This document shows, piece by piece, positions 5,207 to 43,588 of a stretch of 64,000 nt of DNA (the first letter of the stretch is position 1; every line of letters begins with the position of its first letter). The translations under genes were made by a program, and so were the position numbers. Below the pieces are notes generated by a model. That model searched no databases and was not told the origin of the DNA. It saw nothing but the letters and a program-made list of their open reading frames with translations. The stretch comes from Escherichia phage vB_EcoM-Ro121c4YLVW, in sequence record NC_052654.1. One strand, 5' to 3'.

Positions 5207-5224
5207 TCTAAAAGGAGTGCTACT

Positions 5225-5983
5225 ATGGGAAATAAAACCGCAGCTAAAACACAACGGCAGAAACTGGCTAATTCAGCAAAGATTGAAAGCCGTTATGCAG
5301 CAAAAGCGGTAGGTAATGACGATTACCGTTTAGATGAATTTATGCCTGAAGGGGACCAAAATAAGATTGTTCAAAGCATGATTTGGAATGATCTGACTGT
5401 TGTAAATGCTCCGGCAGGGACTGGTAAAACCTCTGTTGCTTTATGGAAAGCTTTGCAGATGCTTCGTTCAGGAGACTTCCGTAAACTACTTTTTATCAAG
5501 AACCCTACTGAAGTCGGAGATGACCAGATTGGTTTCTTGTCTGGGGATAAAACAGATAAACTAGCAGCACACTATGAATCTACAAAACGTATTTTCCAGC
5601 AATTCATGACAGCCAACAAATTGGAAAACGATATTGGATCAGGTAAGATCGAATTGAATATTCCTAACTATTTGTTGGGGGCTACCCTGGATAATACAAT
5701 CGTCATTATTGACGAAGCACAACTCATGTCAACAGAAACACTTAAACTTCTTATTGAACGTGCAGGTATTAATACGCATGTTATTGTATTAGGCGATGTT
5801 CGCCAGACATATGCAATTAAAAAACGTAGCAATGGTCTGCATCAAATTTTGGAACTTTTATATCCAGAAAATGAAGAAGGTGTTCGTGAGCCAATTGTAG
5901 ATTTTATTGGATACGTTGAACTGACAACGGACGATAATAAACGTGGACGTTTGTCTAAACTGATTACTGAAGTGTTTATTTAA
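5225..5983 (+). CDS. phoH: PhoH-like ATPase
   Basis: Walker A APAGTGKTS, Walker B IIDEAQ; start chosen at ATG after AAAGGAG (alternative 5174). Confidence 0.8.
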   Translation: MGNKTAAKTQRQKLANSAKIESRYAAKAVGNDDYRLDEFMPEGDQNKIVQSMIWNDLTVVNAPAGTGKTSVALWKALQMLRSGDFRKLLFIKNPTEVGDDQIGFLSGDKTDKLAAHYESTKRIFQQFMTANKLENDIGSGKIELNIPNYLLGATLDNTIVIIDEAQLMSTETLKLLIERAGINTHVIVLGDVRQTYAIKKRSNGLHQILELLYPENEEGVREPIVDFIGYVELTTDDNKRGRLSKLITEVFI

Positions 5984-6018
5984 TAATGTGGCAGGGAAGC
6001 CATTTATAAGGAGGATTG

Positions 6019-6519
6019 ATGGGTGTAGCAACAATAGCTATCGGAAGAAGCGGTATAGATGAGTGCTATCAAACGGGACTCGTAAAACCTAACGAATTTC
6101 GTCAAATTTGTGTAAACCATATTGAAAAAGAGATTGCTCTTACTTTAGAGAATATGACCCTCCGAGATAAACTGGAAATGTTTAAATGTTGGTGTCTAGG
6201 AGAAGATTGGCTTTTAAACCATTTTCAAGAACTTTCTGATAGTAAAGAAAGCTTGTTTGATTGTATAATAGGAATAGCTGGCTCCGATCCTAGCCTTCTG
6301 CACATAACAGAAGAAGAGGCGAAGTTACTGTTCTTAAGTAATTTGTTTAATAAGAAAGCACTGCTTGTTCGTGATTGTAGTGATCTTCTTAATAACCCGC
6401 TCGCAACGTCTGATCAAATTTTTGTTGACAAAGAGACACTACGTGCGATAGAATACATCTGCAAATATGTGAATGGCGGGAAAGCGGTTCTTAAAACATT
6501 AACAGAGGAGGAAGAATAG
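6019..6519 (+). CDS. hypothetical protein
   Basis: ORF track 167 aa; RBS AAGGAGG. Confidence 0.5.
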   Translation: MGVATIAIGRSGIDECYQTGLVKPNEFRQICVNHIEKEIALTLENMTLRDKLEMFKCWCLGEDWLLNHFQELSDSKESLFDCIIGIAGSDPSLLHITEEEAKLLFLSNLFNKKALLVRDCSDLLNNPLATSDQIFVDKETLRAIEYICKYVNGGKAVLKTLTEEEE

Positions 6520-7211
6520 TGACGACAATTATTGCAACCAAAAATAAGATTTTGAGTGACGGTAAGGTAACTTTTGGTGGACGTGTAGATTCTATTAATT
6601 TCAAAAAGGTCCGAAAAATTGGAGATTACCTTGTAGGTGGTGCTGGTCGTCTGACCTCCGTGCTTTCTTTCTTTCAATGGTTTGAACAAAATCTACAGTG
6701 CGAAGCAGCACGTGATGCTGTCCCTGGTTTGATGATTCACTCTGATCCAGATAAAGAAGATGAAGAGTTTATTGCACTTGTTGTTCATCCAGACGGACGT
6801 ATTTTCCTGCACGAAGGTAATAACCCAACACGTGCATATCCGATTGATGAAGAATATTATGCGGTAGGAAGCGGGTCAGACTTTGCTTTAGCTGCTCTTG
6901 ATGCAGGGGCAACACCAGAACAGGCTATGGAAGTAGCTAAAAAGCGAGATGCTTTTTCTGGTGGTGAAACATTTATTGAAGAACAAGACGAGATTATTGA
7001 ATTAACAGATGATGATTTAGAAAACTTCTCCAAAGAAGAATTGATCAATCTTTTGAAATTCGGTAATCCCTACGGTGAAGAAGAACCTCGTAACGTGGCA
7101 GGTAACGAGGCGGATACTGAAGAAAAATCTGTTGCAGAAAACAACTTGACTTCTAAATCTGAAAATATTAATCTCGTAAATGTGGCGGATTTCGAAGGAA
7201 CCGCTATTTAA
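6519..7211 (+). CDS. HslV-like (proteasome beta-like, Ntn-hydrolase) peptidase with acidic C-terminal extension
   Basis: N-terminal MTTI (Thr after Met), GGAG and AVGSGSDFALAAL motifs as in HslV; GTG start after GGAGG. Confidence 0.65.
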   Translation: MTTIIATKNKILSDGKVTFGGRVDSINFKKVRKIGDYLVGGAGRLTSVLSFFQWFEQNLQCEAARDAVPGLMIHSDPDKEDEEFIALVVHPDGRIFLHEGNNPTRAYPIDEEYYAVGSGSDFALAALDAGATPEQAMEVAKKRDAFSGGETFIEEQDEIIELTDDDLENFSKEELINLLKFGNPYGEEEPRNVAGNEADTEEKSVAENNLTSKSENINLVNVADFEGTAI

Positions 7212-8196: not shown

Positions 8197-8433
8197 ATGG
8201 GTAAACTAATTATGACAGTGGCTATTGATTTTGATGAAGTAGATGAAAGCCTCAACCTTTCACTTTCTACTGACGTAGATGGCGAAATGGATAATATTGA
8301 AGCAGCTACTGCTCTTTTCTTCAAAAAAGCCATTGAAGTTTATGCCGAACATGCTGCAAATCAGGCAGTAGATTACGGTGGTATCGTGCGAGCTTTAGTT
8401 CACTCTACCGAGGGCAATGACTGGGAAGATTAA
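8197..8433 (+). CDS. hypothetical protein
   Basis: ORF track 78 aa. Confidence 0.4.
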   Translation: MGKLIMTVAIDFDEVDESLNLSLSTDVDGEMDNIEAATALFFKKAIEVYAEHAANQAVDYGGIVRALVHSTEGNDWED

Positions 8434-8636
8434 TGGCTTACAATTATTACTGCATTTATGCACATGAAAAGAAAAAAGGTGACACTGGGACTAACGTTTA
8501 TGCAGAGTCCGAATCTCATGCAAAAGAGATTGGTGCTATCCTTTTATCACGCTGGACTGGAAATAATTACAGTGCAGAAGATATGTTTGCAGAAGTGGAT
8601 TCTAGTATCCAAGAAGACAACATAACAACTACGTGA
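8433..8636 (+). CDS. hypothetical protein
   Basis: ORF track 67 aa, ATG overlapping previous stop. Confidence 0.4.
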   Translation: MAYNYYCIYAHEKKKGDTGTNVYAESESHAKEIGAILLSRWTGNNYSAEDMFAEVDSSIQEDNITTT

Positions 8637-8646
8637 TATACTTATA

Positions 8647-8668
8647 CTCCCTTTTCGGAGGGAGTATT
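8647..8668 (+). terminator. Rho-independent terminator
   Basis: actcccttttcggagggagt hairpin plus atttt. Confidence 0.45.
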
Positions 8669-8681
8669 TTAAGGAGGGATT

Positions 8682-8876
8682 ATGCAGAGCGGAGAAGAAC
8701 TTTTAGAGAAACAATTCTCAACGCGTCAACAAGCTTTAAGTTATATGGTTTTTCTAAGCAATCTTGATGTGAATGAGATACTTTTACGGCGCGAAGGTAA
8801 TTTCTGGAGCGTTAAATATCATGCAACAAGGTCTGTAATCTACCTGGAAGAGGCGGAATTCTCTTTGGTAGAATGA
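8682..8876 (+). CDS. hypothetical protein
   Basis: ORF track 64 aa; RBS AAGGAGGG. Confidence 0.4.
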   Translation: MQSGEELLEKQFSTRQQALSYMVFLSNLDVNEILLRREGNFWSVKYHATRSVIYLEEAEFSLVE

Positions 8877-13186: not shown

Positions 13187-13211
13187 TAACCCGCTTCGGC
13201 GGGTTTTTTAT
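13187..13211 (+). terminator. Rho-independent terminator
   Basis: aacccgcttcggcgggtt hairpin plus ttttatt. Confidence 0.7.
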
Positions 13212-17897: not shown

Positions 17898-17923
17898 ACG
17901 ACCTCCTATTGCTACAGATATGA

Positions 17924-17945
17924 AAAAACCCGCCGAAGCGGGTTC
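17924..17945 (-). terminator. Rho-independent terminator (minus strand)
   Basis: cccgccgaagcggg hairpin; T-run on minus strand. Confidence 0.5.
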
Positions 17946-20300: not shown

Positions 20301-20542
20301 TCCGCTATTAACGTCAAACCAAGTGCATCGTTAAAACGCTCAACATTTGAGTATAGGTATGGAGGGGTTATTTGCTCTAAAATTTGTGCTGCTTCCACTT
20401 GGTGTTCTATGTTTTGAGAAGTTCGGGCATAAACTAAGACACCCATTTTATTCAAAATAAAAACAGAATCAGACCCATCCAGCTTATCAACGGCTGCATA
20501 CATTTTAGTCATATTTTCTCCTGGATTACCATTCAGCAACAA
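20294..20542 (-). CDS. hypothetical protein (C-terminal ...LIAEW)
   Basis: ORF track 82 aa. Confidence 0.4.
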   Translation of the reverse strand: MLLNGNPGENMTKMYAAVDKLDGSDSVFILNKMGVLVYARTSQNIEHQVEAAQILEQITPPYLYSNVERFNDALGLTLIAEW

Positions 20543-20741
20543 GACTAGGATTCATAGCAAAAGCTTTGAAAGTTGTTATGTCATGACTAACATTAAAACT
20601 AACACCTTTTACTTTCTCTAGTATTTGAACTTTTGTCTCTCCGTCCCACGGTAGGATGATAACACCATCTCCTGTGATCAACCACCAATGGTTCTCTCCA
20701 TCTCGTGAATCTTTTGCTTTGTATAGAAAATTGGAACTCAT
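20526..20741 (-). CDS. hypothetical protein (C-terminal ...LVAEW)
   Basis: ORF track 71 aa; RBS AGGAGGAAG. Confidence 0.4.
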   Translation of the reverse strand: MSSNFLYKAKDSRDGENHWWLITGDGVIILPWDGETKVQILEKVKGVSFNVSHDITTFKAFAMNPSLVAEW

Positions 20742-20934
20742 TCTTCCTCCTGTTCGGTATTATTCACCTGTGAGACACAATGTAACACAAGCTTTGTGAG
20801 TTTGTCAAGGATCTAATTACATTCTACAGAAGAAGAGGGTTAATAACTATAGGAATAGTCTTACTATAGGTGCAATACTAGTTAAGACTTAGATTGATAG
20901 GTAAGACTTATCTTAAACAGATAATTGATAGGTG

Positions 20935-21010
20935 AATCAGCATTGACTTTTTCAAAAAAATATGGTACCCTAAACATATGTTTACGAGCGATAGCGAGTA
21001 GTAGATTTCT
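20935..21010 (+). promoter_or_regulatory. promoter-like conserved element, copy A (TTGACT..TACCCT..CGAGCGATAGCGAGTA)
   Basis: About 60 bp nearly identical to 55716-55790. Confidence 0.35.
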
Positions 21011-21101
21011 ATATAATAATGTTTCATGTTACTCACGATAGTGAGGTATGAAACGTAAGTGAAGGTAGATAAACTATGATCATCTATCTACCATCTATTA
21101 A

Positions 21102-21876: not shown

Positions 21877-22072
21877 TTCTACCTCCTTCGATGCTTTGTG
21901 CCGTACCATCCCAAGCCATTAGAATATTTGCCAATAGTTCACGAGGCTCTTTAAACCAAACTTCCATTTCATCAAGAATCTCGTCCGTGTCGTAAGTATA
22001 ACCTGGAACACCAAGTTCGCATTTCTTAAGATAGCTTTCTAACCAGCGGTGATAATTCTTAACCCCATTCAT
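21869..22072 (-). CDS. hypothetical protein
   Basis: ORF track 67 aa. Confidence 0.4.
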   Translation of the reverse strand: MNGVKNYHRWLESYLKKCELGVPGYTYDTDEILDEMEVWFKEPRELLANILMAWDGTAQSIEGGRNE

Positions 22073-22397
22073 ACTGTGCTACCTTTTCTTTTACCCAATC
22101 TACACGATCTTTATCATAATGTTGAGTGCCAAGGAAAAGACCATTGTGGAAACTTTCCTCACCGAAAGGATAAATCGGATCTAAACCATCTTCTTCAAAT
22201 AACATTTTTAGTCTCTGTGATGTAGATTTCTTAGTTTCTGAGTTGTAGTTTGTGGTTATAAGCCAATCTTCCAAACAACGACACAAACCTTGACGAGAAT
22301 CCCAAGGAAAAACACAATCTCCGACAGGAGCTTGTTCAGCCCATTTCAACCAGCCTTTAAAAAAGTTATACAGTATGTAGTCTTCAGTGTAATACAT
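22059..22397 (-). CDS. paralog-family protein F (FY..W..GLC..PF..R..WV motif family)
   Basis: Shares motif pattern with five other genes; start at ATG after AAGGAGGAG. Confidence 0.5.
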   Translation of the reverse strand: MYYTEDYILYNFFKGWLKWAEQAPVGDCVFPWDSRQGLCRCLEDWLITTNYNSETKKSTSQRLKMLFEEDGLDPIYPFGEESFHNGLFLGTQHYDKDRVDWVKEKVAQYEWG

Positions 22398-22448
22398 TAT
22401 CTCCTCCTTTACGTATACAATAACACCCCGAAGAACGGGGTGCAACTG

Positions 22449-23064: not shown

Positions 23065-23337
23065 TCACCCCCAAGAAATATTTATATATCTTACAATGTT
23101 TGCACTGTCTAAAGCCATGTTTGCACCACACCCACGCTCGCGCCAGTAACTAACAATACCTTCACAGATACTCTCTTGTATCTTCTTATCACTTGGCATT
23201 TCTAGTATAAGACTTGGATTGTGGATGTTTATGTTATAATATCCTTCCTCTGCGGCTTGAGCTACCAATTTACTTACTTTTTCAAAGTACGGGGAATTAG
23301 TGGCATCTGCCATTGTTTTTAAGGTTTGTCTATCCAT
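23065..23337 (-). CDS. hypothetical protein
   Basis: ORF track 90 aa. Confidence 0.45.
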   Translation of the reverse strand: MDRQTLKTMADATNSPYFEKVSKLVAQAAEEGYYNINIHNPSLILEMPSDKKIQESICEGIVSYWRERGCGANMALDSANIVRYINISWG

Positions 23338-23702
23338 TATTCTGCCTCATCATAGAAGAAATCCAACTCTTGTTCCAGTTGTTTAACTCGATCCTTAACC
23401 CACTGTACACGTTTTTCATTAAACATGCAACGTTTTTCCTTACACTCTTGCTCAAAAGATTTTGCTGTGTTAAACGGGAAAGTTGTATCTAAACCAGCAT
23501 TTTCAAAACTGGCTAATTGCATACCATAAACAGAATATGCTAAAGAATGATCGGCTCGAAATTCATCACTTATATACATACGTAGACCTCGGCATAAGCC
23601 AACATCAGCGTAACCACTTTCTCGTGGAAAGAGACGGAGGTGTTCTAACCAATTATTATAGAAATCTAAAAGAATCCTCTTACACTTCAAATCAATTGTC
23701 AT
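23337..23702 (-). CDS. paralog-family protein E
   Basis: DFYNNWL...GLCRGL...FPFN...RVQWVKDRV; start after GAAGGAG. Confidence 0.5.
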   Translation of the reverse strand: MTIDLKCKRILLDFYNNWLEHLRLFPRESGYADVGLCRGLRMYISDEFRADHSLAYSVYGMQLASFENAGLDTTFPFNTAKSFEQECKEKRCMFNEKRVQWVKDRVKQLEQELDFFYDEAE

Positions 23703-24102
23703 AAAAAGTTTCTCCTTCATCGAACAAGTTGGCAAGATTGTTCACCGCAATTTGGGTGGAAAGAAGACAACTGTTTGCAGACACATAAGCACGGGCTATT
23801 TTGTAAACATAAGCTTTCGTATTGCAATCTTCTAAAATCGGAAGACTTTCATCGATAGCATCTATAACACTAAACATTACATCTAAAACTTTAATGGTGA
23901 GTGTTGTATTTGTATCTTCGTAACCTTTTTCAATCCGACCTGAATAGAAAGTATAGTCCTCAACAGTTCGTCGTTTAAATTGGCGCATAAAATCAGAACC
24001 ATCTGTAGCAGAATTGAACAAATTTTCAAAAAATACCTCCCATCCGGCAAAAAGGGCTGACAGCATGATTAAGTGGTCTACAGATTCATTTTCTTGTTTC
24101 AT
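23692..24102 (-). CDS. hypothetical protein
   Basis: ORF track 136 aa. Confidence 0.45.
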   Translation of the reverse strand: MKQENESVDHLIMLSALFAGWEVFFENLFNSATDGSDFMRQFKRRTVEDYTFYSGRIEKGYEDTNTTLTIKVLDVMFSVIDAIDESLPILEDCNTKAYVYKIARAYVSANSCLLSTQIAVNNLANLFDEGETFYDN

Positions 24103-24110: not shown

Positions 24111-24782
24111 CTATTTAATGTTCAATCTAGCACACAAGCGAGAAACAGTTTTAGCATCCCACTTACCACCACGTGCTGTTGCGATTTTCTTACTATTGAA
24201 TTTTTCAGCAATAGTTTTGTAAGGTGTATTTAAATCTCTAAGGATCTCCAAGCGTTCACGGAATGTCTCTGCAAAAGCGTCTGCTTTAACAGAATTGTAT
24301 TCCATTTTTCCTTTTCTACGTGCAGCGGCAGTTTTAGGATTAGCACTGCCTAATAAAACACCTTTGCTTTTTGCTACAGCAAGACCCTTTTTAATACGAT
24401 CAGCAATACCTCTGACTTCTTGTTCAGCCAGAACAGACAGAAGCTGTATAACCATTTTATCTGCATCTGGCATGATGGCTATCTTAACATCGATCATTTC
24501 TAGAAGAGTTGCTACGGAGGCGTTGTTACGACCCAAGCGGTCAACTTTAGCTACCAATAAAGTTGCTCCGGTAGCTTTACACATTTCAACCGCTTTGACC
24601 AGTTCCTTACGTTGCTTCCAATCGCCCTTACCCGAATAGTATTCAGAAAATTGACCAATAACTTCAGCATCAGGCACAGAGTCTAAGAAGTAACGGATAT
24701 CGTTCTCTTGGCTCTCCATACCATATTGTGCCTCACCTTTTTTCTGTTTAGAAAGACGACTGTAAACAACAAACTTTTTCAT
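24111..24782 (-). CDS. serine recombinase (resolvase/invertase family)
   Basis: N-terminal YSRLS catalytic motif and LLVAKVDRLGRN motif; C-terminal HTH-like region. Confidence 0.65.
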   Translation of the reverse strand: MKKFVVYSRLSKQKKGEAQYGMESQENDIRYFLDSVPDAEVIGQFSEYYSGKGDWKQRKELVKAVEMCKATGATLLVAKVDRLGRNNASVATLLEMIDVKIAIMPDADKMVIQLLSVLAEQEVRGIADRIKKGLAVAKSKGVLLGSANPKTAAARRKGKMEYNSVKADAFAETFRERLEILRDLNTPYKTIAEKFNSKKIATARGGKWDAKTVSRLCARLNIK

Positions 24783-24852
24783 AACCACTCCTAAACCATT
24801 GCTGTATTCTCACTTTACAAAACGAATAAACACTTGTCAAGGTATTTATTAT

Positions 24853-25065
24853 TTACAGCCATTCTACTTTTAAGCAGTATTCTTCGACATGTTGTTTACG
24901 CTTGTTTTTGTCTATGTAAGTGTATTCAACAAATGTCCCAAGATAATCCTTGTCCACATTGTGTTGGCTATTAATTGGACATTTAGTACGACAAACCCGT
25001 TGCCACTGACGAAGAATTACGGCTTTGTTTTTAGGATCAAAGGGATGAGGGTAATGTGCCTTCAT
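24853..25065 (-). CDS. hypothetical protein
   Basis: ORF track 70 aa. Confidence 0.4.
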   Translation of the reverse strand: MKAHYPHPFDPKNKAVILRQWQRVCRTKCPINSQHNVDKDYLGTFVEYTYIDKNKRKQHVEEYCLKVEWL

Positions 25066-26548: not shown

Positions 26549-26772
26549 TCTTCCATCTCAAACCATTCAGGGAACACTTTGCGGAAGACCCGCGTGTTTT
26601 CTAAGAGAAATTCCAACTCTTTTTCCAAATCTGCGTTCCAACCGTTTATTTTAACACGGATTGCCAATGCACTTGCACGGCGACTCAATTCTTGACAGAT
26701 TGGATCACGCAGAACTATTGAGTCATAAAACTGACAAACAGCCTCAAGTTCATACCAGTTATAATCCGACAT
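26545..26772 (-). CDS. hypothetical protein
   Basis: ORF track 75 aa. Confidence 0.4.
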   Translation of the reverse strand: MSDYNWYELEAVCQFYDSIVLRDPICQELSRRASALAIRVKINGWNADLEKELEFLLENTRVFRKVFPEWFEMEE

Positions 26773-27098
26773 TATTCATCCTCCTCTGCAATACGATCTC
26801 TTACCCAATTAATCCTGTCCACGTTCAGGTGACATACCTCTGCATCTGATTCTAAGATATATGCATCGTAGTTCTCATTGAAAGGGAGTGCTTGACTCAA
26901 CCCTTTGTGGTAAAACTGTGCGTGCATTTCATCTGACAAGATTGTTATAATGGGGTTGTAATTACCTCTGTGCACATAATCGAACAAGTTGGCACACAAA
27001 CCACAATCCCGCCGAAAAGGTTTACCATCAGGAGCACCAACATCAATCCATGCTAGATAAATTTTATAAAACTCCATCAACCTTGTGCTTGTTTTCAT
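26772..27098 (-). CDS. paralog-family protein D
   Basis: EFYKIYLAWI...GLCANL...LPFN...RINWVRDRI. Confidence 0.5.
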   Translation of the reverse strand: MKTSTRLMEFYKIYLAWIDVGAPDGKPFRRDCGLCANLFDYVHRGNYNPIITILSDEMHAQFYHKGLSQALPFNENYDAYILESDAEVCHLNVDRINWVRDRIAEEDE

Positions 27099-36819: not shown

Positions 36820-37023
36820 TTAGATGATCTGCATATCCTCCACGATAATTTCTAATTTCCAAACAAGATGATCTAAGCTCCCTGATAAAAATGATTCCGA
36901 TACATAACCGCCATCGGATACCGTAGCAAGGATCTCGCCATTTGCTTGCTCTTTGATTTGAACATCCAGGCGGTTAGCCTTTGCTTTATTCAGGACGGCG
37001 ATCAGGCGGTTAGCTGTAGTCAT
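36820..37023 (-). CDS. hypothetical small protein
   Basis: Start at ATG after GGAAGGAAA; upstream part of track ORF is the translated leader hairpin. Confidence 0.45.
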   Translation of the reverse strand: MTTANRLIAVLNKAKANRLDVQIKEQANGEILATVSDGGYVSESFLSGSLDHLVWKLEIIVEDMQII

Positions 37024-37040
37024 GGTGTTTCCTTCCAGTG

Positions 37041-37100
37041 GTGAGCGGCACCATTGCCGCCCTACAAAACACATCTTACACTATCCGGCACATTGTGCAA
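37041..37100 (-). promoter_or_regulatory. array promoter unit (TTGCAC-N16-TAAGAT, TAGGGCGG, hairpin GCGGCAATGGTGCCGC)
   Basis: Read on minus strand upstream of 36820-37023. Confidence 0.55.
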
Positions 37101-37106
37101 GCTATT

Positions 37107-37298
37107 TTAAATCTTATCGCCAATATAATCTGATCTGTTCTTCTCTGTCATGCGCTTTAATAATTCTTGCATATTGCTTATAGCTTGCAAGGTGTCTTCT
37201 TCCAGACTTGAATCAACATAATCAGGATCATTCTTCACCTTGCTATAGTTGTGATAGCGTAACGCTGCTAATACCTTTCTAACTTGTTCCACGTTCAT
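37107..37298 (-). CDS. hypothetical protein
   Basis: ORF track 63 aa. Confidence 0.4.
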   Translation of the reverse strand: MNVEQVRKVLAALRYHNYSKVKNDPDYVDSSLEEDTLQAISNMQELLKRMTEKNRSDYIGDKI

Positions 37299-37307
37299 AA
37301 TGTACCC

Positions 37308-37442
37308 TTAAAATAGTGTGCCGATGGAAGATAGCAGGTCACTAACAACTAAAACCAGATCTACTATCACATATCTAATCAGGAAGGGGATAAGCGCCAG
37401 CGTCGCTACTATGATCCCCATTGTGATGATCACCTTTCTCAT
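37308..37442 (-). CDS. 44-aa hydrophobic membrane peptide
   Basis: ATG 3 nt after upstream stop; no clear SD. Confidence 0.3.
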   Translation of the reverse strand: MRKVIITMGIIVATLALIPFLIRYVIVDLVLVVSDLLSSIGTLF

Positions 37443-37444
37443 CG

Positions 37445-37729
37445 TTAGCGGCTTACGTAGGCTTTACCGTTTACGGTCATCGGTATGGCTTCAAGGTCTG
37501 GATCTTCCTTAAGGTCGCGTGCAAGCTCACCGCAGCGGATACCCTCGAATCCGTGATATTCTGTTACACCGTCGTTAAATGTTTTAGCGGCAAGGCATAG
37601 GCGATAATTAACGCCGATCCGGTTTATTGCGTTGATATCGGTTAGCGTGATGGATTCTGGCAACTCATTAGCCAGTACAGGCGCGTTAATACCAACAACC
37701 AGGGCAACTACTGCGATCATCTTTTTCAT
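37445..37729 (-). CDS. secreted small protein (signal peptide)
   Basis: MKKMIAVVALVVGINAPVLA-NE; RBS AGGAAGAGGA. Confidence 0.5.
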   Translation of the reverse strand: MKKMIAVVALVVGINAPVLANELPESITLTDINAINRIGVNYRLCLAAKTFNDGVTEYHGFEGIRCGELARDLKEDPDLEAIPMTVNGKAYVSR

Positions 37730-37783
37730 GTGTCTATCCTCTTCCTATTGCGTTTAATGGGGCGTTACCGCCCCGCTTATGGT

Positions 37784-38020
37784 TTATTGATTGATGTTAT
37801 GATGAAAGTTATTTTCTTCAATAGCTTTTAAAATAAAAGCCGTGATCGCTTTCGTGTCTACTTGTTCGAACGTATCAGAATAAGCCCAATAATAATCATC
37901 CCCTACTTTCGGCGGGTAAACCTGGACAAGGAGATCGCCACCTGGTTGATCTATAAGCTCAACATGCAAGCCGGATGATTCAGCGGTTTTAACGGCGTTT
38001 AATACTGTTGCAATACTCAT
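37784..38020 (-). CDS. hypothetical protein
   Basis: ORF track 78 aa. Confidence 0.45.
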   Translation of the reverse strand: MSIATVLNAVKTAESSGLHVELIDQPGGDLLVQVYPPKVGDDYYWAYSDTFEQVDTKAITAFILKAIEENNFHHNINQ

Positions 38021-38064
38021 AATCTTTCCCTTTCTGATGTGGGGCGTTGCCGCCCCTTTGTTGA

Positions 38065-38364
38065 TTAGATCGCTGTTTCCAGTAGTTCGGCTAACGTCTT
38101 ACCGCCTGATAGTTGGTCTAACGTTTGCTCTTCTGGCAAGAAATTAGCTGATATTAATCCGACTTGATTTCCTTTGTGCCAATTAGCTTGACGGATGATT
38201 CCATCCTTTAAAGATTTTACCGCCATTGTGCAACCGTCGCCAAATGATTCATTTTTATGATCCATTACTTCATAAGCGCCCAGCTTGCTGCTGTTAGGCA
38301 CCATTAATGCGAATACATCACCAACAACCAGTTTTTCTACGGTAACAATAGCGATAGTTTCCAT
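38065..38364 (-). CDS. hypothetical protein
   Basis: ORF track 99 aa; RBS GAGGAAAG. Confidence 0.45.
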   Translation of the reverse strand: METIAIVTVEKLVVGDVFALMVPNSSKLGAYEVMDHKNESFGDGCTMAVKSLKDGIIRQANWHKGNQVGLISANFLPEEQTLDQLSGGKTLAELLETAI

Positions 38365-38382
38365 TTTACTTTCCTCATTATC

Positions 38383-38439
38383 GGCGGCACCATTGCCGCC
38401 CTACGTGGTAAATATTAGCACACTGGCGATCTGTGTCAA
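38383..38439 (-). promoter_or_regulatory. array promoter unit (TTGACA-N16-TAATAT, GTAGGGCGG, hairpin)
   Basis: ggcggcaccattgccgccctacgtggtaaatatta...tgtcaa on + strand. Confidence 0.6.
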
Positions 38440-38445
38440 TACTTT

Positions 38446-38832
38446 TTATTCAATATAAATCAAATTATCTTCACCAATGTAAGCCGACACGTTCGGCATA
38501 AACTTAGCTGCATTGGTTAGGCGGTTCGCCGTGTTAGTGGTGTATATTTCAGGGCGATCCCAAAAGCCTACGCCGTGACTGTTACGGGTAAAATGTAAAT
38601 CATTCCCGATCTGGTTGGCTGTTGCGCCGTCGCTCATTGCCTCAGAGATAGCGGCATTATTGGCATCACAAAACGCCGCCACGTCACGTATGATCCGCTG
38701 ATGGGCTTGATCTGAAAATTCATAATCAGTCATGTCATCTATAAAATTACCTTCATGATCCCTTGCGGATTCAGCAAAAATAAAGGCTTCTTTATAACCG
38801 TTGATGATTTCAATAATGATTTCTGTTTTCAT
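38446..38832 (-). CDS. hypothetical protein
   Basis: ORF track 128 aa. Confidence 0.45.
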   Translation of the reverse strand: MKTEIIIEIINGYKEAFIFAESARDHEGNFIDDMTDYEFSDQAHQRIIRDVAAFCDANNAAISEAMSDGATANQIGNDLHFTRNSHGVGFWDRPEIYTTNTANRLTNAAKFMPNVSAYIGEDNLIYIE

Positions 38833-39053
38833 GCTGTACGCTCGACAATAATAATGGTTTGCGGTATCTCGTTTTCTACTACTAATAAGGCTTTTTTCTG
38901 CGTGATAGATATTTTAACACGTTGTAAAGTAGCGGTAAAATCTTTCATTTCATTATGCGCGGATTTAGTGCAATGCCAGATCTCAGGCTTACCTATTTGC
39001 AAGCCGCGTAAAAATTCTGTTTTACCTGTCTTATTCGTGATCATTTGATTCAC
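38829..39053 (-). CDS. hypothetical protein
   Basis: ORF track 74 aa. Confidence 0.4.
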   Translation of the reverse strand: MNQMITNKTGKTEFLRGLQIGKPEIWHCTKSAHNEMKDFTATLQRVKISITQKKALLVVENEIPQTIIIVERTA

Positions 39054-39054
39054 C

Positions 39055-39159
39055 TTAACCGATACCGTGGGAAGATAGGATCATATTAGCCATAGTTGCA
39101 ACCACTCCAACCGATAACGCCAGGCCCACTATTACAACCGTGAAAATTTTCTCTAACAT
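39055..39159 (-). CDS. 34-aa hydrophobic membrane peptide
   Basis: Own promoter/hairpin unit upstream, RBS GAGGG; below ORF-track cutoff. Confidence 0.4.
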   Translation of the reverse strand: MLEKIFTVVIVGLALSVGVVATMANMILSSHGIG

Positions 39160-39426
39160 GATTCTACCCTCATTAATGGGCGTTGCCTTATTGCCCCGCC
39201 CTACGAAATACATTCTATCAGATAACAAATTATCGTCAAGATTTATTTTTTACTTCCCAAACGGAAAATTCGCTGCCTGTTGGGATCATCTTTTTAATCT
39301 TGTTTGCTGCCGCTACCAGGTCAACGGCTTGCACTGTAATAATATAACCAATTGTCGAGGCTGTTGCGTTGAAAGTTTTCATTATATTACCCTTTAATAC
39401 AGGCGGGATTAATCCCGCCTTGTTGA

Positions 39427-39597
39427 TTACTCTTCATCGTCGCCGTTATAGTATTCAATGCCATTTTCATCGGTTACGGTGATGTTAACGCCACCGATAG
39501 CAACACGATCACGGGCAAACGTCATGGCTTCATTTAAATCTTCAGACCAAAAAATATTGTGACCTTTGCGCGATACATAAAACATAGTCGGGATCAT
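39427..39597 (-). CDS. hypothetical small protein
   Basis: Start at ATG after AGAAGAGAAA; upstream part of track ORF is leader hairpin. Confidence 0.45.
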   Translation of the reverse strand: MIPTMFYVSRKGHNIFWSEDLNEAMTFARDRVAIGGVNITVTDENGIEYYNGDDEE

Positions 39598-39618
39598 GAT
39601 TTGTTTCTCTTCTGTTGT

Positions 39619-39681
39619 GAGCGGTGGACCATTCCGCCGCCCTATGTGGTAAACTTTACTACGTTGTTTGCGTGCTGTCAA
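39619..39681 (-). promoter_or_regulatory. array promoter unit (TTGACA-N17-TAAAGT, ATAGGGCGG, hairpin GGCGGAATGGTCCACCGC)
   Basis: Hairpin stem differs from other copies but stays self-complementary. Confidence 0.6.
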
Positions 39682-39682
39682 A

Positions 39683-39967
39683 TTATTTTTTAATGTTTTG
39701 CCCTACAAAATTAATCATTTCCTTAAGCTGTCTCTCTGTCATGATCGTACCTGGTAACTCTTCTTTAATTTCTTCCGGTAAATAAATATTACCGCGCCAG
39801 GTTAACAAACAACCGTTTTGATCTTCGCAGATAGAATAGGAAAACATCCACTCGCAATCATTTTCAAGCTCCCAAAAACACAAAAAGTCTTCTTTCCCTA
39901 AGTTTTCAACGGTTAAACATAATCCGCGACGTGCTGCATAATTAGTTAGGCTTTTTGTGATTTTCAT
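39683..39967 (-). CDS. hypothetical protein
   Basis: Start at internal ATG (MKITKS...), 94 aa. Confidence 0.45.
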   Translation of the reverse strand: MKITKSLTNYAARRGLCLTVENLGKEDFLCFWELENDCEWMFSYSICEDQNGCLLTWRGNIYLPEEIKEELPGTIMTERQLKEMINFVGQNIKK

Positions 39968-39986
39968 GATTTTTCTCTCTTCTTGT

Positions 39987-40044
39987 GAGCGGCACCATTG
40001 CCGCCCTACAAGATACATATTACCAGACTAAGCCGACTTGTCAA
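39987..40044 (-). promoter_or_regulatory. array promoter unit
   Basis: gagcggcaccattgccgccctacaagatacatatta...tgtcaa. Confidence 0.6.
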
Positions 40045-40165
40045 ACTATTTTTTCTTTTTCTTTGCTTCCAACCGTCTAAGGTTACGGCTTGACTTATTG
40101 CGCAAGGCGCTTAGATCGTCGTACCCTTTCCATGCTTGCATATCTTTCGGATTCATGTTATCCCC

Positions 40166-40327
40166 TTACTTGTTAGCCGGATTATATGCCAGGACCGCGC
40201 CGCTTGCTTTCACGCTTTCCGCTTCATAGTTGCGCAGATCGTTTTCTGTAAGGTTGAGCGCGATCACTTCCTCGATCTCAACGTCAGCGGCAAGGGCGAT
40301 CTCTTTGATAATGTCTGCTGTTTTCAT
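40166..40327 (-). CDS. hypothetical small protein
   Basis: Start at ATG after AAGGTG; 53 aa. Confidence 0.4.
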   Translation of the reverse strand: MKTADIIKEIALAADVEIEEVIALNLTENDLRNYEAESVKASGAVLAYNPANK

Positions 40328-40337
40328 AGTATGCACC

Positions 40338-40457
40338 TTATAAGATGATTGATAAGATAGTGACAACGAAAGCGATTATACTGATGGCAAATGTTATCTT
40401 TTTACCTTCGGATACTGCCGGATTTTTTGCCGTGTATTCTACTATGTACTTGCTCAT
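40338..40457 (-). CDS. 39-aa membrane peptide (C-terminal TM helix)
   Basis: Promoter unit upstream, RBS GAGAGGA; below ORF-track cutoff. Confidence 0.4.
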   Translation of the reverse strand: MSKYIVEYTAKNPAVSEGKKITFAISIIAFVVTILSIIL

Positions 40458-40480
40458 CGTGTAATCCTCTCATTTGCCTT

Positions 40481-40540
40481 GGGAACTATTCCCGCCGCCC
40501 TATGAATTAAATATACACTATCTCAAAAAGATTGCAAGCC
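40481..40540 (-). promoter_or_regulatory. array promoter unit (hairpin variant GGGAATAGTTCCC)
   Basis: gggaactattcccgccgccctatgaatt...tgcaag. Confidence 0.55.
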
Positions 40541-40555
40541 TTTTTCTGAATTATT

Positions 40556-40840
40556 TTATGCAGTAAACAAACCATCATTTACAACGGCGGCGATGATCTC
40601 CCGTGCCATTGATTCAGGGAAAGGGGCGCTATAGTCCTGGCTTGTCTCGTCGGTGTCAGTGATACAATGATAAGCTAACGAGTAAAAGCCTTTACTAACT
40701 GTTTTCAGTGAGATGATGATCACTCGGTCAAGCTTATTGGTGAATGTTGCCGTTAATGTGTTACCCTCCTGCGTCATATTGGACAAGTAAGCGGCATTAT
40801 TAATCAGGGAAAACATTAGCACGGTGTTAGCTTTACTCAT
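40556..40840 (-). CDS. hypothetical protein
   Basis: Start at internal ATG after GAGGATG; 94 aa. Confidence 0.45.
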   Translation of the reverse strand: MSKANTVLMFSLINNAAYLSNMTQEGNTLTATFTNKLDRVIIISLKTVSKGFYSLAYHCITDTDETSQDYSAPFPESMAREIIAAVVNDGLFTA

Positions 40841-40856
40841 GATTGCATCCTCAAAG

Positions 40857-40916
40857 GGGCGCGGCACCATTGCCGCCCTACACGATAACTATAACACAAT
40901 ATAAAACAGGATCAAC
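40857..40916 (-). promoter_or_regulatory. array promoter unit
   Basis: gcgcggcaccattgccgccctacacgat...gatcaa. Confidence 0.55.
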
Positions 40917-41124
40917 CTTTATTTTTCCACGGTGTCAGTTTGTTAATCATTGGTGATAAATAGCGTTTACCAACGTAAAACAGTACGCCAACTGATGCAA
41001 CGGCGGCGATCTCATGTAAGGAGGAAGGTCGCGCGGTGTCATAGTAGGTACCAATAATAGCAATAGCGGCTACTGCGGCAATGTCTGTAATAATTTTTTC
41101 TTGTTTTGTTGTGATAGTGGTCAT
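40912..41124 (-). CDS. small membrane protein (two hydrophobic segments)
   Basis: ORF track 70 aa. Confidence 0.45.
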   Translation of the reverse strand: MTTITTKQEKIITDIAAVAAIAIIGTYYDTARPSSLHEIAAVASVGVLFYVGKRYLSPMINKLTPWKNKG

Positions 41125-41145
41125 AATGTTTTTCTCTTTTATGTG

Positions 41146-41203
41146 GTCGGGAACTATTCCCGCCCTACGTGATACATCTTATCATACTTGGTTATGCTGT
41201 CAA
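41146..41203 (-). promoter_or_regulatory. array promoter unit (TTGACA-N16-TAAGAT)
   Basis: ggtcgggaactattcccgccctacgtgatacatctta...tgtcaa. Confidence 0.6.
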
Positions 41204-41209
41204 CCGTTT

Positions 41210-41395
41210 TTAAAGATATTTTATGCTAATGACGTTTTCAGGTTTAACCTTGTTGTGATGTGCATCAACATAGATCAAACCATCGTCAGAAAAGCCCAGG
41301 ATCACGCCCTGCGCGATAAAACCGTACGCATCACGGTAACGCACGGCTATTTTTAATGTTGCGTTGTAGGCTGTTTTAAGCTCGTTTAAAGTCAT
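41210..41395 (-). CDS. hypothetical protein
   Basis: ORF track 61 aa. Confidence 0.4.
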   Translation of the reverse strand: MTLNELKTAYNATLKIAVRYRDAYGFIAQGVILGFSDDGLIYVDAHHNKVKPENVISIKYL

Positions 41396-41450
41396 TTTTG
41401 TTTATCCTCTACATGTAAAAAGAAAGGGCGCTTGATGCGCCCTTGTTATG

Positions 41451-41597
41451 TTAATCCTCTAAATCCATCCAATTATATTTGTCACTCTTCCCGCGCTTTG
41501 TTTTATTGCGCTTGTCGCCTTTGCGGATCACTTCCTCGTTCCAGGCCTTGCGGATCTTGGAAGATTGAATTTTTTCTGCGCGATTAGATGTATTCAT
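41451..41597 (-). CDS. 48-aa basic protein
   Basis: Promoter/hairpin variant upstream, RBS GAGGAAACAAA; below ORF-track cutoff. Confidence 0.4.
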   Translation of the reverse strand: MNTSNRAEKIQSSKIRKAWNEEVIRKGDKRNKTKRGKSDKYNWMDLED

Positions 41598-41676
41598 TTT
41601 GTTTCCTCTTCATATGAGCGGCACCATTGCCGCTATATTGTTAATTTAAACTGTTTTGTAAAATTGTCAAGGTTTA

Positions 41677-42030
41677 TCATTCATAAGAGCAAGCAAGGAT
41701 CACGCCTGCAATATAAAGCCAATAATTTTCCCTTTCTCGTTGGATTTTATCATCGCTGCTATTCTCTTTAATGTATCCCCAGGATGTTAACAGGCGATCA
41801 ATTTCCCAATATTCGAAAGCGATATTGATATCTGATGGCAAGCCTTGTAACCATGATGCAAGTGCTTTAACAATACTATAATTAAAACGTGATTGGTTAT
41901 CAGGGTACCAGTACTCGGAATTAAAACGGCGCATCAATTCCGCGATCTTCTCTTTTTCGGTTGTAATACCGTAATCATTAAAATCGATAGCGGCAAGGAT
42001 GTACTCTTTAATTGCATTTTGTGCTTTCAT
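41677..42030 (-). CDS. hypothetical protein
   Basis: ORF track 117 aa. Confidence 0.5.
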   Translation of the reverse strand: MKAQNAIKEYILAAIDFNDYGITTEKEKIAELMRRFNSEYWYPDNQSRFNYSIVKALASWLQGLPSDINIAFEYWEIDRLLTSWGYIKENSSDDKIQRERENYWLYIAGVILACSYE

Positions 42031-42047
42031 GGTCTTTCTCTCTTTTT

Positions 42048-42106
42048 GAGCGGGAACTATTCCCGCCCTACGTGTAACAGTTTACTAAAAATTAAATCGG
42101 TGTCAA
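42048..42106 (-). promoter_or_regulatory. array promoter unit
   Basis: gagcgggaactattcccgccctacgtgtaac...tgtcaa. Confidence 0.6.
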
Positions 42107-42109
42107 GCT

Positions 42110-42331
42110 TTATTTTGTTACTACCATTTGGTACCCTGCTTCAATGTTAGTAAATACTGTTATTCCGTCCTGGCGTTCACTCATTAGCATACAAGGCGCT
42201 AACATCCTTTCTACTGCCTTGCACTCATTGTAAACGGCGGTTATATCTCCTGCGGCCTTGTCTTCTGTGGTGAATGTATCGTTTACGTAAACTTGACCAG
42301 CAACAACGGCGACAATAGCGAAAGTGATCAT
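42110..42331 (-). CDS. small protein with N-terminal hydrophobic segment
   Basis: Start at ATG (MITFAIVAVVAG...). Confidence 0.4.
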   Translation of the reverse strand: MITFAIVAVVAGQVYVNDTFTTEDKAAGDITAVYNECKAVERMLAPCMLMSERQDGITVFTNIEAGYQMVVTK

Positions 42332-42410
42332 AATGTTTTTTCTCTTTATGTGTTTCGTTTCAATTAGTTGATAATACAGCAATTTGCAGATTAGTCTTTA
42401 GCAATTCATG

Positions 42411-42629
42411 CTATTTACTCACAACAATATCGAAAACAAATTTTTCTTTGTTGTCTAAGCTCACGTATCCGATTCGACCACGCAATCCGAGAGTAGTGCC
42501 GTATTCGTAACCATCAAGACCTTTAACCTTCCAATCCATGCCCATTAAAACCGCATTATATTTCTGACCAACTACAAAAGCGCCACCAGTTGATTCAATG
42601 CAAACAACTTTAATTTTACGGATTGCCAT
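42411..42629 (-). CDS. hypothetical protein
   Basis: ORF track 72 aa; promoter TTGACT-N17-TATAAT with palindrome flanking -10. Confidence 0.45.
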   Translation of the reverse strand: MAIRKIKVVCIESTGGAFVVGQKYNAVLMGMDWKVKGLDGYEYGTTLGLRGRIGYVSLDNKEKFVFDIVVSK

Positions 42630-42707
42630 TTTCTTTCTCTCTTTCTGGTGATTGGTTTCTCTTCTCTATAGCGCCCATTATAAGGCGCTATAACGAAAAG
42701 TCAACGA

Positions 42708-42875
42708 TTATTTTTTAAGGCTTAAAGTACCTAACTTGTCAGCATGACGTAGACCAGGGAAGATCCATTTTCCTGATTCATCTTTTACAGGGGCTTTAAG
42801 CGTAGCGCCCAGGTTGGCGGCGTTAACTTTACGTGCAACGTTGCGAGCGGCTTCACGGGTAGCGAAAGTGATCAT
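42708..42875 (-). CDS. 55-aa hypothetical protein
   Basis: Promoter unit upstream, RBS AGAGGAAAA; below ORF-track cutoff. Confidence 0.4.
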   Translation of the reverse strand: MITFATREAARNVARKVNAANLGATLKAPVKDESGKWIFPGLRHADKLGTLSLKK

Positions 42876-42966
42876 AATATTTTCCTCTTCTCTTTGTTAG
42901 GCGGTGGACCATTCCGCCGCCTTGATGTAATACAGTTTACTTTATTTTTGCAGTATTGCAAGCGTT

Positions 42967-43179
42967 TTATGAAATAATCGTCAAAGTAAAATTGTAATCA
43001 CCTGATTGGTACAATACTTTATCACCGAACGTTCCAACACGTTTAACATTGCAATATATACCCATAACACTTTTTACATCTTTGATATTCTTCACGCCTG
43101 TAATATCTTTATTAAAATGATCGTGATCAGAAAATAAAACTTGACTTGCATTTTTTAACAGTGTGCGGATATTAGCCAT
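42967..43179 (-). CDS. hypothetical protein
   Basis: ORF track 70 aa. Confidence 0.45.
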   Translation of the reverse strand: MANIRTLLKNASQVLFSDHDHFNKDITGVKNIKDVKSVMGIYCNVKRVGTFGDKVLYQSGDYNFTLTIIS

Positions 43180-43212
43180 CGTGATAATCTCTCTTCTGTT
43201 GTGAGCGGCACT

Positions 43213-43270
43213 ATTGCCGCCCTACGTAATACAGTTTACTCTTTTTCTTTCCCGTGTCAACAATCTTTTT
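43213..43270 (-). promoter_or_regulatory. array promoter unit
   Basis: gagcggcactattgccgccctacgtaatac...tgtcaa. Confidence 0.6.
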
Positions 43271-43497
43271 CAGATTAATTCATCCAGGCATAACAGGCGA
43301 TCAACGTTGAGATCGGTCAGGCTGATGGTTGGCACCTGGTAGGATTCGATGTACTCAACGCTTGCATATTCCCCAAAATTAGCAATAGCCCACTTATTCA
43401 AGATCTCACATACATCATTAATCTTTTTGTTTGTTACAACTGCAATAACCTGGGAAGTGCCAACGGTGCCGGATACGCGAACAATATTGATAGCCAT
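43270..43497 (-). CDS. hypothetical protein
   Basis: ORF track 75 aa. Confidence 0.45.
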   Translation of the reverse strand: MAINIVRVSGTVGTSQVIAVVTNKKINDVCEILNKWAIANFGEYASVEYIESYQVPTISLTDLNVDRLLCLDELI

Positions 43498-43519
43498 AAT
43501 CTTTAATCTCTCTGCTGTT

Positions 43520-43579: not shown

Positions 43580-43588
43580 CTGTTTTTA

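Follow-up and report, generated by a model that had tools for sequence, protein, structure and literature searches.

A small serine recombinase maintained in lytic Stephanstirmvirinae phages, with a change of locus and an exchanged DNA-binding part

Escherichia phage vB_EcoM-Ro121c4YLVW carries a gene for a stand-alone small serine recombinase of an uncharacterised subfamily, and its homologue alignment and predicted fold both indicate that the enzyme is probably catalytically competent. It is also well supported that this gene is vertically inherited and selectively maintained in phAPEC8- and phi92-like lytic myoviruses (Stephanstirmvirinae and relatives). The identity of the protein as a recombinase is secure; the kind of enzyme is ordinary, and its setting is mildly unusual. 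Among the roles weighed below, we tentatively lean towards a resolvase-type enzyme acting on the phage's own replicating DNA, with a single putative site per genome copy. Throughout, the window denotes the whole stretch of DNA that was analysed, 64,000 nt in length.

The gene is already annotated in GenBank, where the protein is called resolvase, DNA invertase, recombinase (or recombinase family protein) or hypothetical protein; some records misname it "methionine ABC transporter ATP-binding protein". We found no functional study of it in the literature, only annotation remarks, and the published remarks are one-line guesses (PMC10282059). New in the present analysis are the affinity of the C-terminal part, the purifying selection, the gene's own promoter, the change of locus and the swapped DNA-binding part.

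Gene, active site and fold

In the ORF list, the recombinase ORF (Table 1) begins on the minus strand with the ATG at 24782 and is closed by the TAG at 24111-24113. The first-pass annotation had the coordinates exactly; the strand, which it left unstated, is minus. An alternative GTG start at 24788, two codons upstream of the ATG, would give a protein of 225 aa, and the ATG is favoured because the AGGAG lies 5 nt upstream of it. The upstream spacer of 68 nt holds the sigma-70-type promoter and one weak dyad. An equivalent TTGAC-type promoter precedes the homologue in ESCO13, phiWec186, phi92, a Klebsiella phage, ICP1 and Vibrio phage 1.170.O, and a promoter of its own was found for each of the homologues examined (7/7). 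This arrangement suggests that host RNA polymerase drives early expression of the recombinase, promoter activity and early timing both being predictions made from the DNA sequence. The gene is surrounded by small early genes, and the flanks examined thus agree with the setting described in the first-pass annotation.

Table 1. Positions in the window of the recombinase gene, its parts and associated elements
Feature	Position	Strand	Basis and remarks
Serine recombinase CDS	24111..24782	-	ORF list; 223 aa + stop; homologue of phAPEC8_0049 and ESCO13_00051 ("resolvase")
RBS AGGAG	24788..24792	-	Direct sequence reading; 5 nt before ATG
Predicted sigma-70-type promoter TTGACA-17 nt-TAAAGT	24812..24840	-	Promoter scan, 10/12 matches; directly upstream of the recombinase
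26-nt imperfect dyad AATAAATAC-CTTGACAA-GTGTTTATT	24825..24850	-	Sequence; overlaps the -35 hexamer
Catalytic domain and helix E (residues 1-142)	24357..24782	-	Pfam, invariant residues, model, PDB matches
Intragenic mosaic junction near codon 145	24349	-	blastn of phiWec186 against the window; per-domain identities
Linker helix and short helical DNA-binding region (residues 146-223)	24114..24347	-	PF07508, Bxb1/SPbeta alignment
"Empty" counterpart of the phi92 recombinase locus	8637..8681	+	45-nt spacer with hairpin; tblastn of phi92 proteins

The earlier recognition of a small serine recombinase with an intact catalytic motif is borne out, far more strongly than chance would allow, by the Pfam match, the invariant residues and the modelled fold. 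The Pfam Resolvase family (PF00239) matches residues 5-142 with E=5.2e-18 and 66 bits, for a cut-off of 23.3 bits, and it matched in 38/38 family members; PHROG 125 ("DNA invertase") matches with E=2.6e-32. The two motifs quoted previously were located, VVYSRLS in residues 5-11 and LLVAKVDRLGRN in residues 75-86. Across 38 aligned homologues, of which the most divergent is 31% identical, Y7, R9, S11, Q25, R58, D81, R82 and R85 are invariant. S11 occupies the nucleophile position, and this serine, whose loss had been named in advance as the observation that would overturn the assignment, is kept throughout the alignment; the DRLGR motif corresponds to residues 81-85. We infer from the sequence that the enzyme is catalytically active.

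An AlphaFold model built on the 38-homologue alignment has a mean pLDDT of 90 and consists of a mixed alpha/beta catalytic domain followed by two long helices, helix E at 109-139 and another at 149-172, and by three short ones. In Foldseek searches, the best match of the whole model was Bxb1 integrase, over the whole length of the recombinase (259 columns), and Sin, gamma-delta and TP901-1 were matched over the catalytic domain. The PDB matches for the catalytic domain with helix E are Gin, gamma-delta, Tn3 and Sin. When the family profile was compared with PDB sequences, Gin was the best match (E=9e-18), and by sequence the nearest relatives of the catalytic domain are Gin, gamma-delta and Tn3. 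NCBIfam holds no specific family for this protein, every match lying far under its cut-off.

The C-terminal part is of a different affinity. PF07508 (Recombinase) gives a sub-threshold match to residues 187-216, which correspond to positions 19-48 of the 102-position model. Across the family PF07508 is found in 20/38 members and HTH_62, a "recombinase-like HTH", in 2/38; HTH_7, the DNA-binding domain of Tn3/Hin-type enzymes, was matched in 0/38. The family profile could be aligned to the Bxb1 and SPbeta integrases through positions 202-216. By profile and model, the DNA-binding end thus appears to be like the opening helices of the "recombinase domain" in large serine recombinases and unlike the HTH of classic resolvases. 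Large serine recombinases have a full recombinase domain and a zinc ribbon with a coiled coil, and are typically 450-700 aa long. Here, a zinc ribbon and a coiled coil are lacking because only about 80 residues, forming four helices in the model, follow helix E. The statement in the first-pass annotation that this is not a large phage integrase therefore stands, given the 223 aa and the absence of the zinc-ribbon and coiled-coil regions. The N-terminal "YxRxS...SxxxQ" spacing is also like that of large serine recombinases. An AlphaFold prediction of the C-terminal 84 residues from the single sequence reached a pLDDT of 55, too poor for a structure search. The C-terminal part evolves much faster than the catalytic domain.

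Conservation, change of locus and exchange of the DNA-binding part

A 5-kb query around the recombinase matches many Phapecoctavirus genomes at 97-99% identity, among them phAPEC8, ESCO13, Ro121lw and SKA64; these relatives are lytic E. coli myoviruses of 145-155 kb in the subfamily Stephanstirmvirinae. The window itself belongs to a phAPEC8-like Phapecoctavirus, a lytic myovirus with a genome of 150 kb. The protein itself is found at >=99% amino-acid identity, that is, at least 99%, in 61 GenBank phage records. Its identity is 74% in the phiWec-type phages, 57% in phi92 and other Justusliebigvirus members and 55% in Klebsiella members of the subfamily; more distant homologues occur in Vibrio phages of 133-140 kb (35-39%) and in a few ICP1 isolates (30%). 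Between the window and SKA64, nieznany and tuntematon there are 13-15 synonymous and 0-1 non-synonymous differences, with dN/dS of 0-0.02, and between deeper lineages dN/dS is 0.06-0.17. The recombinase is under strong purifying selection.

Records with the gene number about 70 for Phapecoctavirus-like and about 56 for Justusliebigvirus-like phages, and a conserved non-coding marker of the subfamily is found in the same numbers of records in both genera. From these equal numbers the gene appears to be fixed in both genera, as read from summary tables and not genome by genome. In Schickermooser six small deletions, all in the first 250 nt of the recombinase gene, represent either a real loss or poor sequence; on the strength of these deletions, plaque formation may not require the recombinase.

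The recombinase is placed between gp054 and gp052 in phi92, and likewise in one phage of Klebsiella and one of Serratia. The block to which these genes belong reads PhoH, an HslV-like peptidase, a DNA methyltransferase, two small genes, the recombinase, a small gene, a NinI-like phosphatase and a DprA-like protein. A metagenomic phage whose recombinase is 51% identical has the gene in the same PhoH-methyltransferase block, and the association of recombinase and block is therefore old, since so distant a phage shares the phi92 location. At 4.2-12.2 kb the window carries the whole phi92 block on its plus strand, and the proteins encoded there are 32-85% identical to those of phi92 (tblastn). The spacer between the homologues of gp054 (8433-8636) and gp052 (8682-8876; 35% identity to phi92 gp052, E=2e-8) contains no recombinase, the two genes being 45 nt apart, and the recombinase of the window lies 16 kb away on the opposite strand, among early genes. 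The phi92 position looks ancestral from this comparison, so the promoter-plus-ORF unit would have moved in Phapecoctavirus. With different loci in sister genera, the recombinase behaves as a promoter-plus-gene cassette.

The edges of this cassette can be followed in mosaic relatives. In ESCO13 and phiWec186 the genes upstream of the recombinase differ, and homology with the window is regained at 24850 (blastn), the left edge of the cassette, just before the recombinase promoter. The gene also sits at a border, with 1-25 kb of the window conserved (at least 80% of it covered by 56 records) and 25-50 kb hypervariable (at least 80% covered by 1 record).

These features could speak for a selfish or moron-like cassette, in which promoter and gene move between intergenic positions with little dedicated benefit to the phage; it may be likened to a free-standing homing endonuclease gene. 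In its favour are the exact placement between gp054 and gp052 in phi92-like phages, where the window has adjacent genes and the recombinase 16 kb off, the start of homology with two independent mosaics at the same point, and the border position. We nevertheless consider it unlikely. The gene is apparently fixed in both genera and not sporadic, dN/dS is near zero, and the flanks at the two loci have no terminal repeats or end sequences in common. Serine transposases of the IS607 TnpA type have an N-terminal HTH and a C-terminal catalytic domain, an architecture that the recombinase does not share with them or with other known serine transposases. The suggestion in the first-pass annotation of a captured mobile element is thus upheld in one respect, the unit being found at different loci in sister genera, and fails in another, since an apparently subfamily-wide gene under strong purifying selection is not a recent capture.

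A second mosaic junction lies inside the gene (Table 1). phiWec186 and the window are homologous upstream of 24349 and non-homologous downstream of it, and the two proteins are 95% identical in the catalytic domain and 37% identical in the C-terminal part. These domain identities indicate that the DNA-binding module has been exchanged between close relatives. The same trend, in weaker form, is seen in other variants, with catalytic and C-terminal identities of 84/67, 83/56 and 85/36. No co-varying site was recognised that accompanies the swapped DNA-binding part.

The exchange bears on a further explanation, that the recombinase acts in trans on the host chromosome, on resident prophages or defence islands, or on a co-infecting relative, and serves in take-over, anti-defence or exclusion; the swapped DNA-binding domain would then mirror changing targets. 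The identities of the phiWec186-type protein do suggest that specificity has changed from one close relative to another, early expression is suggested by promoter type and by the place among small genes of the host-takeover type, and a cis site in the phage was not found. The ICP1 homologue is accessory, being located in a newly annotated gene block of the 2017 DRC isolates examined. That homologue lies near a homing endonuclease gene. In addition, small serine recombinases have been genetically linked to bacterial defence islands (PMC13552941), which we count for action in trans. On the other side, a candidate target is lacking, DNA-binding domains are commonly exchanged in serine recombinases in the absence of an arms race, and the protein is essentially invariant across about 60 phages from very different E. 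coli strains. Such invariance agrees with a conserved target, and that target could just as well lie on the phage. We therefore rate action in trans as rather unlikely.

Search for a target site and the role of the enzyme

The window was joined to the other 84 kb of phage Ro121lw to give a pseudo-genome of 148 kb, and a search of it for inverted repeats (18 nt or longer, 90% identity) yielded just four. A single terminator hairpin accounts for two of them, as pairs of its copies; the third resembles an RBS, and the last is a palindrome of 20 nt. Inside the 64-kb window, inverted-repeat pairs are weak and scattered only. Where the first-pass annotation saw no obvious invertible segment by eye, the inverted-repeat search of the pseudo-genome likewise found none. 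In the gene-order comparison, positions 1-25 kb align collinearly with the best 40 of 190 related records, each of which matches at one place only, and the records listed in both comparisons continue on the same strand across position 25000.

These results weigh heavily on the possibility of a DNA invertase that flips a distant segment, for example a tail-fibre switch like those of Mu Gin and P1 Cin. PHROG 125 bears the name "DNA invertase", the family profile has its best PDB sequence match in Gin, and phi92-like phages have a complex multi-receptor tail, all of which could be taken to speak for it. It is nonetheless very unlikely: the inverted repeats of the pseudo-genome are of the kinds listed above, the related genomes are collinear, the tail genes are not adjacent to the recombinase, and the Hin/Gin-type HTH_7 is missing from the family. 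The programmed inversion proposed in the first-pass annotation is accordingly not sustained. Among the bacterial and prophage relatives, no clear invertible segment was seen next to the prophage homologue of 43% identity.

The search for paired direct sites turned up as direct repeats only the early promoter-hairpin cassettes, a doublet of 72 nt and, outside the window, a tandem repeat. The first of these raise the possibility of an integron-like shuffling of early-gene cassettes at the 18 repeated promoter-hairpin elements at 37-47 kb. The gene does border the hypervariable early region in Phapecoctavirus, and a perfect GC-rich dyad is present in the repeats, which are in direct orientation. 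Against this, each repeat reads as a consensus promoter (TTGACA-17-TAAGAT) with a 5' stem-loop, an RBS and an ATG behind it, and the compensatory changes in their stems point to an RNA or transcription signal and not to a protein-binding sequence. Furthermore, the recombinase of phi92-like phages is not beside such a repeat region, and homologous recombination between identical repeats of 25-43 nt would suffice. We give this explanation hardly any weight.

Adjoining the recombinase, no res-like site was recognised, the 68-nt spacer being filled by the promoter. The promoter dyad at 24825..24850 was rejected as a repeated site, as it is present in a single copy in the window and the promoters of the homologues share no dyad. 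A gene-free stretch of 360 nt at 20742-21101 was also considered. Its core is 83% conserved in phiWec186 despite differing flanking genes and 79% conserved in phi92, and it has a second copy at 55699-55770. The aligned copies of this element at 20.9-21.1 kb consist of TTGACT, a 17-nt spacer, TGnTACCCT and a hairpin with compensatory changes, followed in every copy by the invariant box ACGAGCG(AT)AGCGAGT. The second copy (55.7 kb) and the phi92 copy point into the downstream gene; a third copy is inverted, yet the inversion is found in no genome. The copies at 20.9-21.1 kb and 55.7 kb were rejected as a res pair because they form a promoter-like unit with a hairpin and a conserved leader box, and by its sequence the element looks like a special promoter-leader class and not a recombination site. 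A local array at 20850-20935 holds three AGTCTTA-type and two CCTATCAAT motifs. The short motifs TAAGTCTTA and CCTATCAAT were discarded as sites, since they form local clusters that have no partner elsewhere. The array may be an operator; it is a weak and improbable candidate for a res-like site. An Rfam scan of 20-26 kb gave no match.

No integrated form with attL/attR was found in 5,426 complete E. coli genomes. This concerns an integrase role that would permit rare or cryptic lysogeny. Small serine recombinases can integrate phages, as in Ralstonia phiRSM, and distant relatives of the present protein (33-37% identity) are found on the margin of a P. aeruginosa prophage and in terminal position on a satellite-like element. 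When the 3 kb surrounding the gene served as query, however, the 20,395 records of those E. coli genomes gave no match, and 72,556 plasmids hold no close relative, all matches being below 60% identity. An annotated repressor or lysogeny gene is absent from the flanks examined, and all isolates are described as lytic. An integrase role is, on this evidence, most improbable.

The homologues on plasmids offer a different analogy. Full-length homologues of 35-40% identity occur on 109 plasmids, of which 92 are non-mobilizable (92/109). The plasmids listed include ones of 5-7 kb, and the two that were inspected hold little besides replication and partition genes. Both have a non-coding region of 650-680 nt upstream of the recombinase, and immediately ahead of the gene in the inspected Klebsiella plasmid a 16+2+16 dyad is accompanied by repeated half-sites, an arrangement like that of res. 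A resolvase role is presumed for these plasmid homologues of the same architecture.

A resolvase-type role on the phage's own replicating DNA is the possibility towards which we lean, with the corresponding reserve. The recombinase would act at one specific site in each copy of the phage genome, where a serine-linked double-strand break would be followed by subunit rotation and religation, so that circular or multimeric intermediates of replication or recombination may be separated or cyclised; what is said here of the substrate is conditional throughout. The absence of repeated sites in the phage fits resolution, because one site per monomer suffices. We count for this reading the invariant catalytic residues, the confident fold, the strong purifying selection and the apparent universality of the gene, together with the old association with the block, the gene's own promoters and the plasmid homologues. 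We count against it the lack of an adjacent res-like site, the Schickermooser deletions, and the change of locus with the domain swap. Phages of such size normally package from concatemers, so that monomerisation is not an obvious need, and this too is counted against it. Of the three roles put forward in the first-pass annotation, multimer resolution is thus the most plausible by small-plasmid analogy, with no site recognised for it.

A broader proposal would make site-specific recombination a conserved step of the lytic cycle across a subfamily of large virulent phages, in which an early recombinase with an exchangeable DNA-binding module acts on a phage element or on the genomes of competing relatives. 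We hold this to be decidedly unlikely. One candidate phage element would be the conserved non-coding region and repeat array at 20.85-21.1 kb, 3 kb downstream. If the proposal is true, the recombinase would shape the topology of replication intermediates or the outcome of co-infection, and serine recombinases would have a role outside lysogeny, transposition and phase variation. The remaining probability belongs to some explanation beyond those listed here.

Significance and comparison with known systems

Phage-therapy pipelines read any recombinase as a sign of a temperate phage, and phAPEC8-like and phi92-like phages are popular therapy candidates. The present results remove a false alarm, as the gene is apparently fixed and is constrained in strictly lytic genomes, has no prophage counterpart in the E. 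coli genomes searched and is not of the integrase type. They also pose a puzzle, that of a lytic lineage which conserves a site-specific recombinase, relocates its promoter-gene cassette and swaps its DNA-binding module. This is a compact enzyme whose natural variants combine a common catalytic domain with differing DNA-binding domains; it could be of interest to recombinase engineers if its site were found.

The closest known proteins are phi92 gp053 and ESCO13_00051, orthologues of equal length and with the same two-part architecture, from lytic phages of the subfamily. ESCO13_00051 has zero amino-acid differences from the window recombinase; phi92 gp053 is 57% identical, and its gene is at a different locus. 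The names given to these proteins ("DNA invertase", "resolvase") are automatic. The recombinases of small plasmids (Marinovum pMaD11, Klebsiella plasmids of 5.8 kb) are 35-40% identical, the C-terminal part included, and are present as a single recombinase gene per small replicon, with a function that is likewise presumed. P1 Cre-lox is a phage site-specific recombination system with one site per genome, which cyclises terminally redundant DNA and resolves dimers. It is a functional analogue only, as Cre is a tyrosine recombinase with no homology to the present enzyme and P1 is temperate and maintained as a plasmid.

Among serine recombinases, the Gin, Hin, Cin and Pin invertases are phage-encoded and of similar size, whereas the window recombinase has no flanking invertible segment, a different C-terminal domain and no linkage to tail fibres. 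In the Bxb1, phiC31 and SPbeta integrases, the start of the recombinase domain aligns with the C-terminal helices of the window recombinase, which lacks the rest of that domain as well as the zinc ribbon and coiled coil and for which neither an attP/attB pair nor a prophage form is known. Unlike Tn3/gamma-delta resolvase and Sin, the window recombinase has no HTH_7, no adjacent three-subsite res and no transposase, and it sits in a lytic phage. It shares with them the catalytic domain, the nucleophilic serine, the DRLGR motif and the long helix E, and they serve as its presumed mechanistic model, with double-strand cleavage, a 5'-phosphoserine link and subunit rotation.

A non-coding element kept across genera

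One non-coding element is present twice in the window and once in phi92, a phage of the sister genus (see the table), and it is kept across genera, even between unrelated flanking genes. On the plus strand, 17 nt separate TTGACT from an extended -10 of the form TGnTACCCT, and a hairpin and the invariant box ACGAGCG(AT)AGCGAGT follow in that order; the changes within the hairpin are compensatory. Copy 2 and the phi92 copy both have a gene downstream and lead into it, and copy 1 is directed antisense into the minus-strand early cluster. Copy 1 could give rise to an RNA of ~130 nt; a search of Rfam gave no match for the element.

The short-repeat array, possibly an operator, holds two CCTATCAAT units as well as three of the AGTCTTA(C/A) type, of which one is inverted and the other two are direct. 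In the close relative phiWec186, this array is substituted in part.

Positions of the features discussed (in the window unless another record is named)
Feature	Position	Strand	Context
Non-coding element, copy 1	20742-21101	motifs on plus	
Non-coding element, copy 2	55699-55770		
Non-coding element, phi92 copy	NC_023693.1 129751-129846		
Short-repeat array	20850-20935		directly upstream of promoter-like TTGACA...TTACAT of gene 20526-20741
70-aa ORF	24853-25065	minus	immediately upstream of recombinase
Three paralogous small genes	22059-22445, 23337-23735, 26772-27098	minus	flanking recombinase
Terminator hairpin AACCCGCTTCGGCGGGTTTTTT, three copies	13188-13209, 17923-17944, 50294-50313	one plus, two inverted	
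Two AT-rich direct repeats, 72 nt each, 82% identical	47531-47602, 47669-47740		
Cassette of ~75 nt, 18 copies	37020-46820	read on minus	each before a small early gene

The recombinase: labels, neighbours and homologues

Some records name the recombinase 'methionine ABC transporter ATP-binding protein', a label that is wrong because Pfam gives Resolvase, and many GenBank records name the adjacent 70-aa ORF 'putative ABC transporter ATP-binding protein', which seems implausible given the size of the ORF. The three paralogues share a C-terminal W-V-(K/R)-(D/E)-(K/R)-(V/I) motif and are assigned to VOG7392 in some records.

In phage Schickermooser (MK373788.1), the recombinase gene at 4105-4757 carries six deletions of 1-7 nt, all confined to its first 250 nt, and the annotation covers the C-terminal 128 codons only. 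Either the catalytic domain has truly decayed in this phage, or the assembly is faulty at this place. A more distant homologue, 30% identical, lies in ICP1 (isolate 2017_DRC_82, region 2745-6857) within a newly annotated gene block between GP41 and GP30, with a homing endonuclease gene (GP28) nearby in the 2017 DRC records. In the 2017 DRC isolates examined, this homologue seems to have been acquired and to belong to the accessory genes.

Several genomes that are 97-100% identical to this coliphage, among them MG065650.1, OP562383.1 and MH252123.1, carry Campylobacter, Acinetobacter or Klebsiella as the host in their deposited records, and these host labels look doubtful.

Conservation and repeats along the window

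Among ~65 Phapecoctavirus genomes, conservation drops sharply from the first 25 kb to the next. Coverage of window 1-25000 reaches at least 80% in 56 records, and coverage of 25001-50000, a mosaic of small early genes, does so in only one. The first two AACCCGCTTCGGCGGGTTTTTT hairpins are separated by 4.7 kb, around a strand switch near 17.6 kb, and inversion of the segment between them was seen in no relative. The 72-nt direct repeats, 138 nt apart, lie where genes are sparse and the GC skew switches sign, and the region they span is possibly regulatory or replication-related.

Putative promoter-hairpin cassettes

The 18 cassettes sit in the hypervariable part of the genome. In each, an A-rich tract precedes TTGACA, a spacer of 17 nt separates this from TAAGAT or TAATAT, and GTAGGG, a perfect GC hairpin, a ribosome-binding site and ATG follow in that order. 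The hairpin stem occurs in three variants, for example GCGGCAATGGTGCCGC and CGGGAATAGTTCCCG, with pairing kept in each. The cassettes have the appearance of strong early promoters that carry a 5' stem-loop. In T4-type phages, promoter-stem-loop cassettes are associated with gene shuffling, and the cassettes of the window are reminiscent of those.
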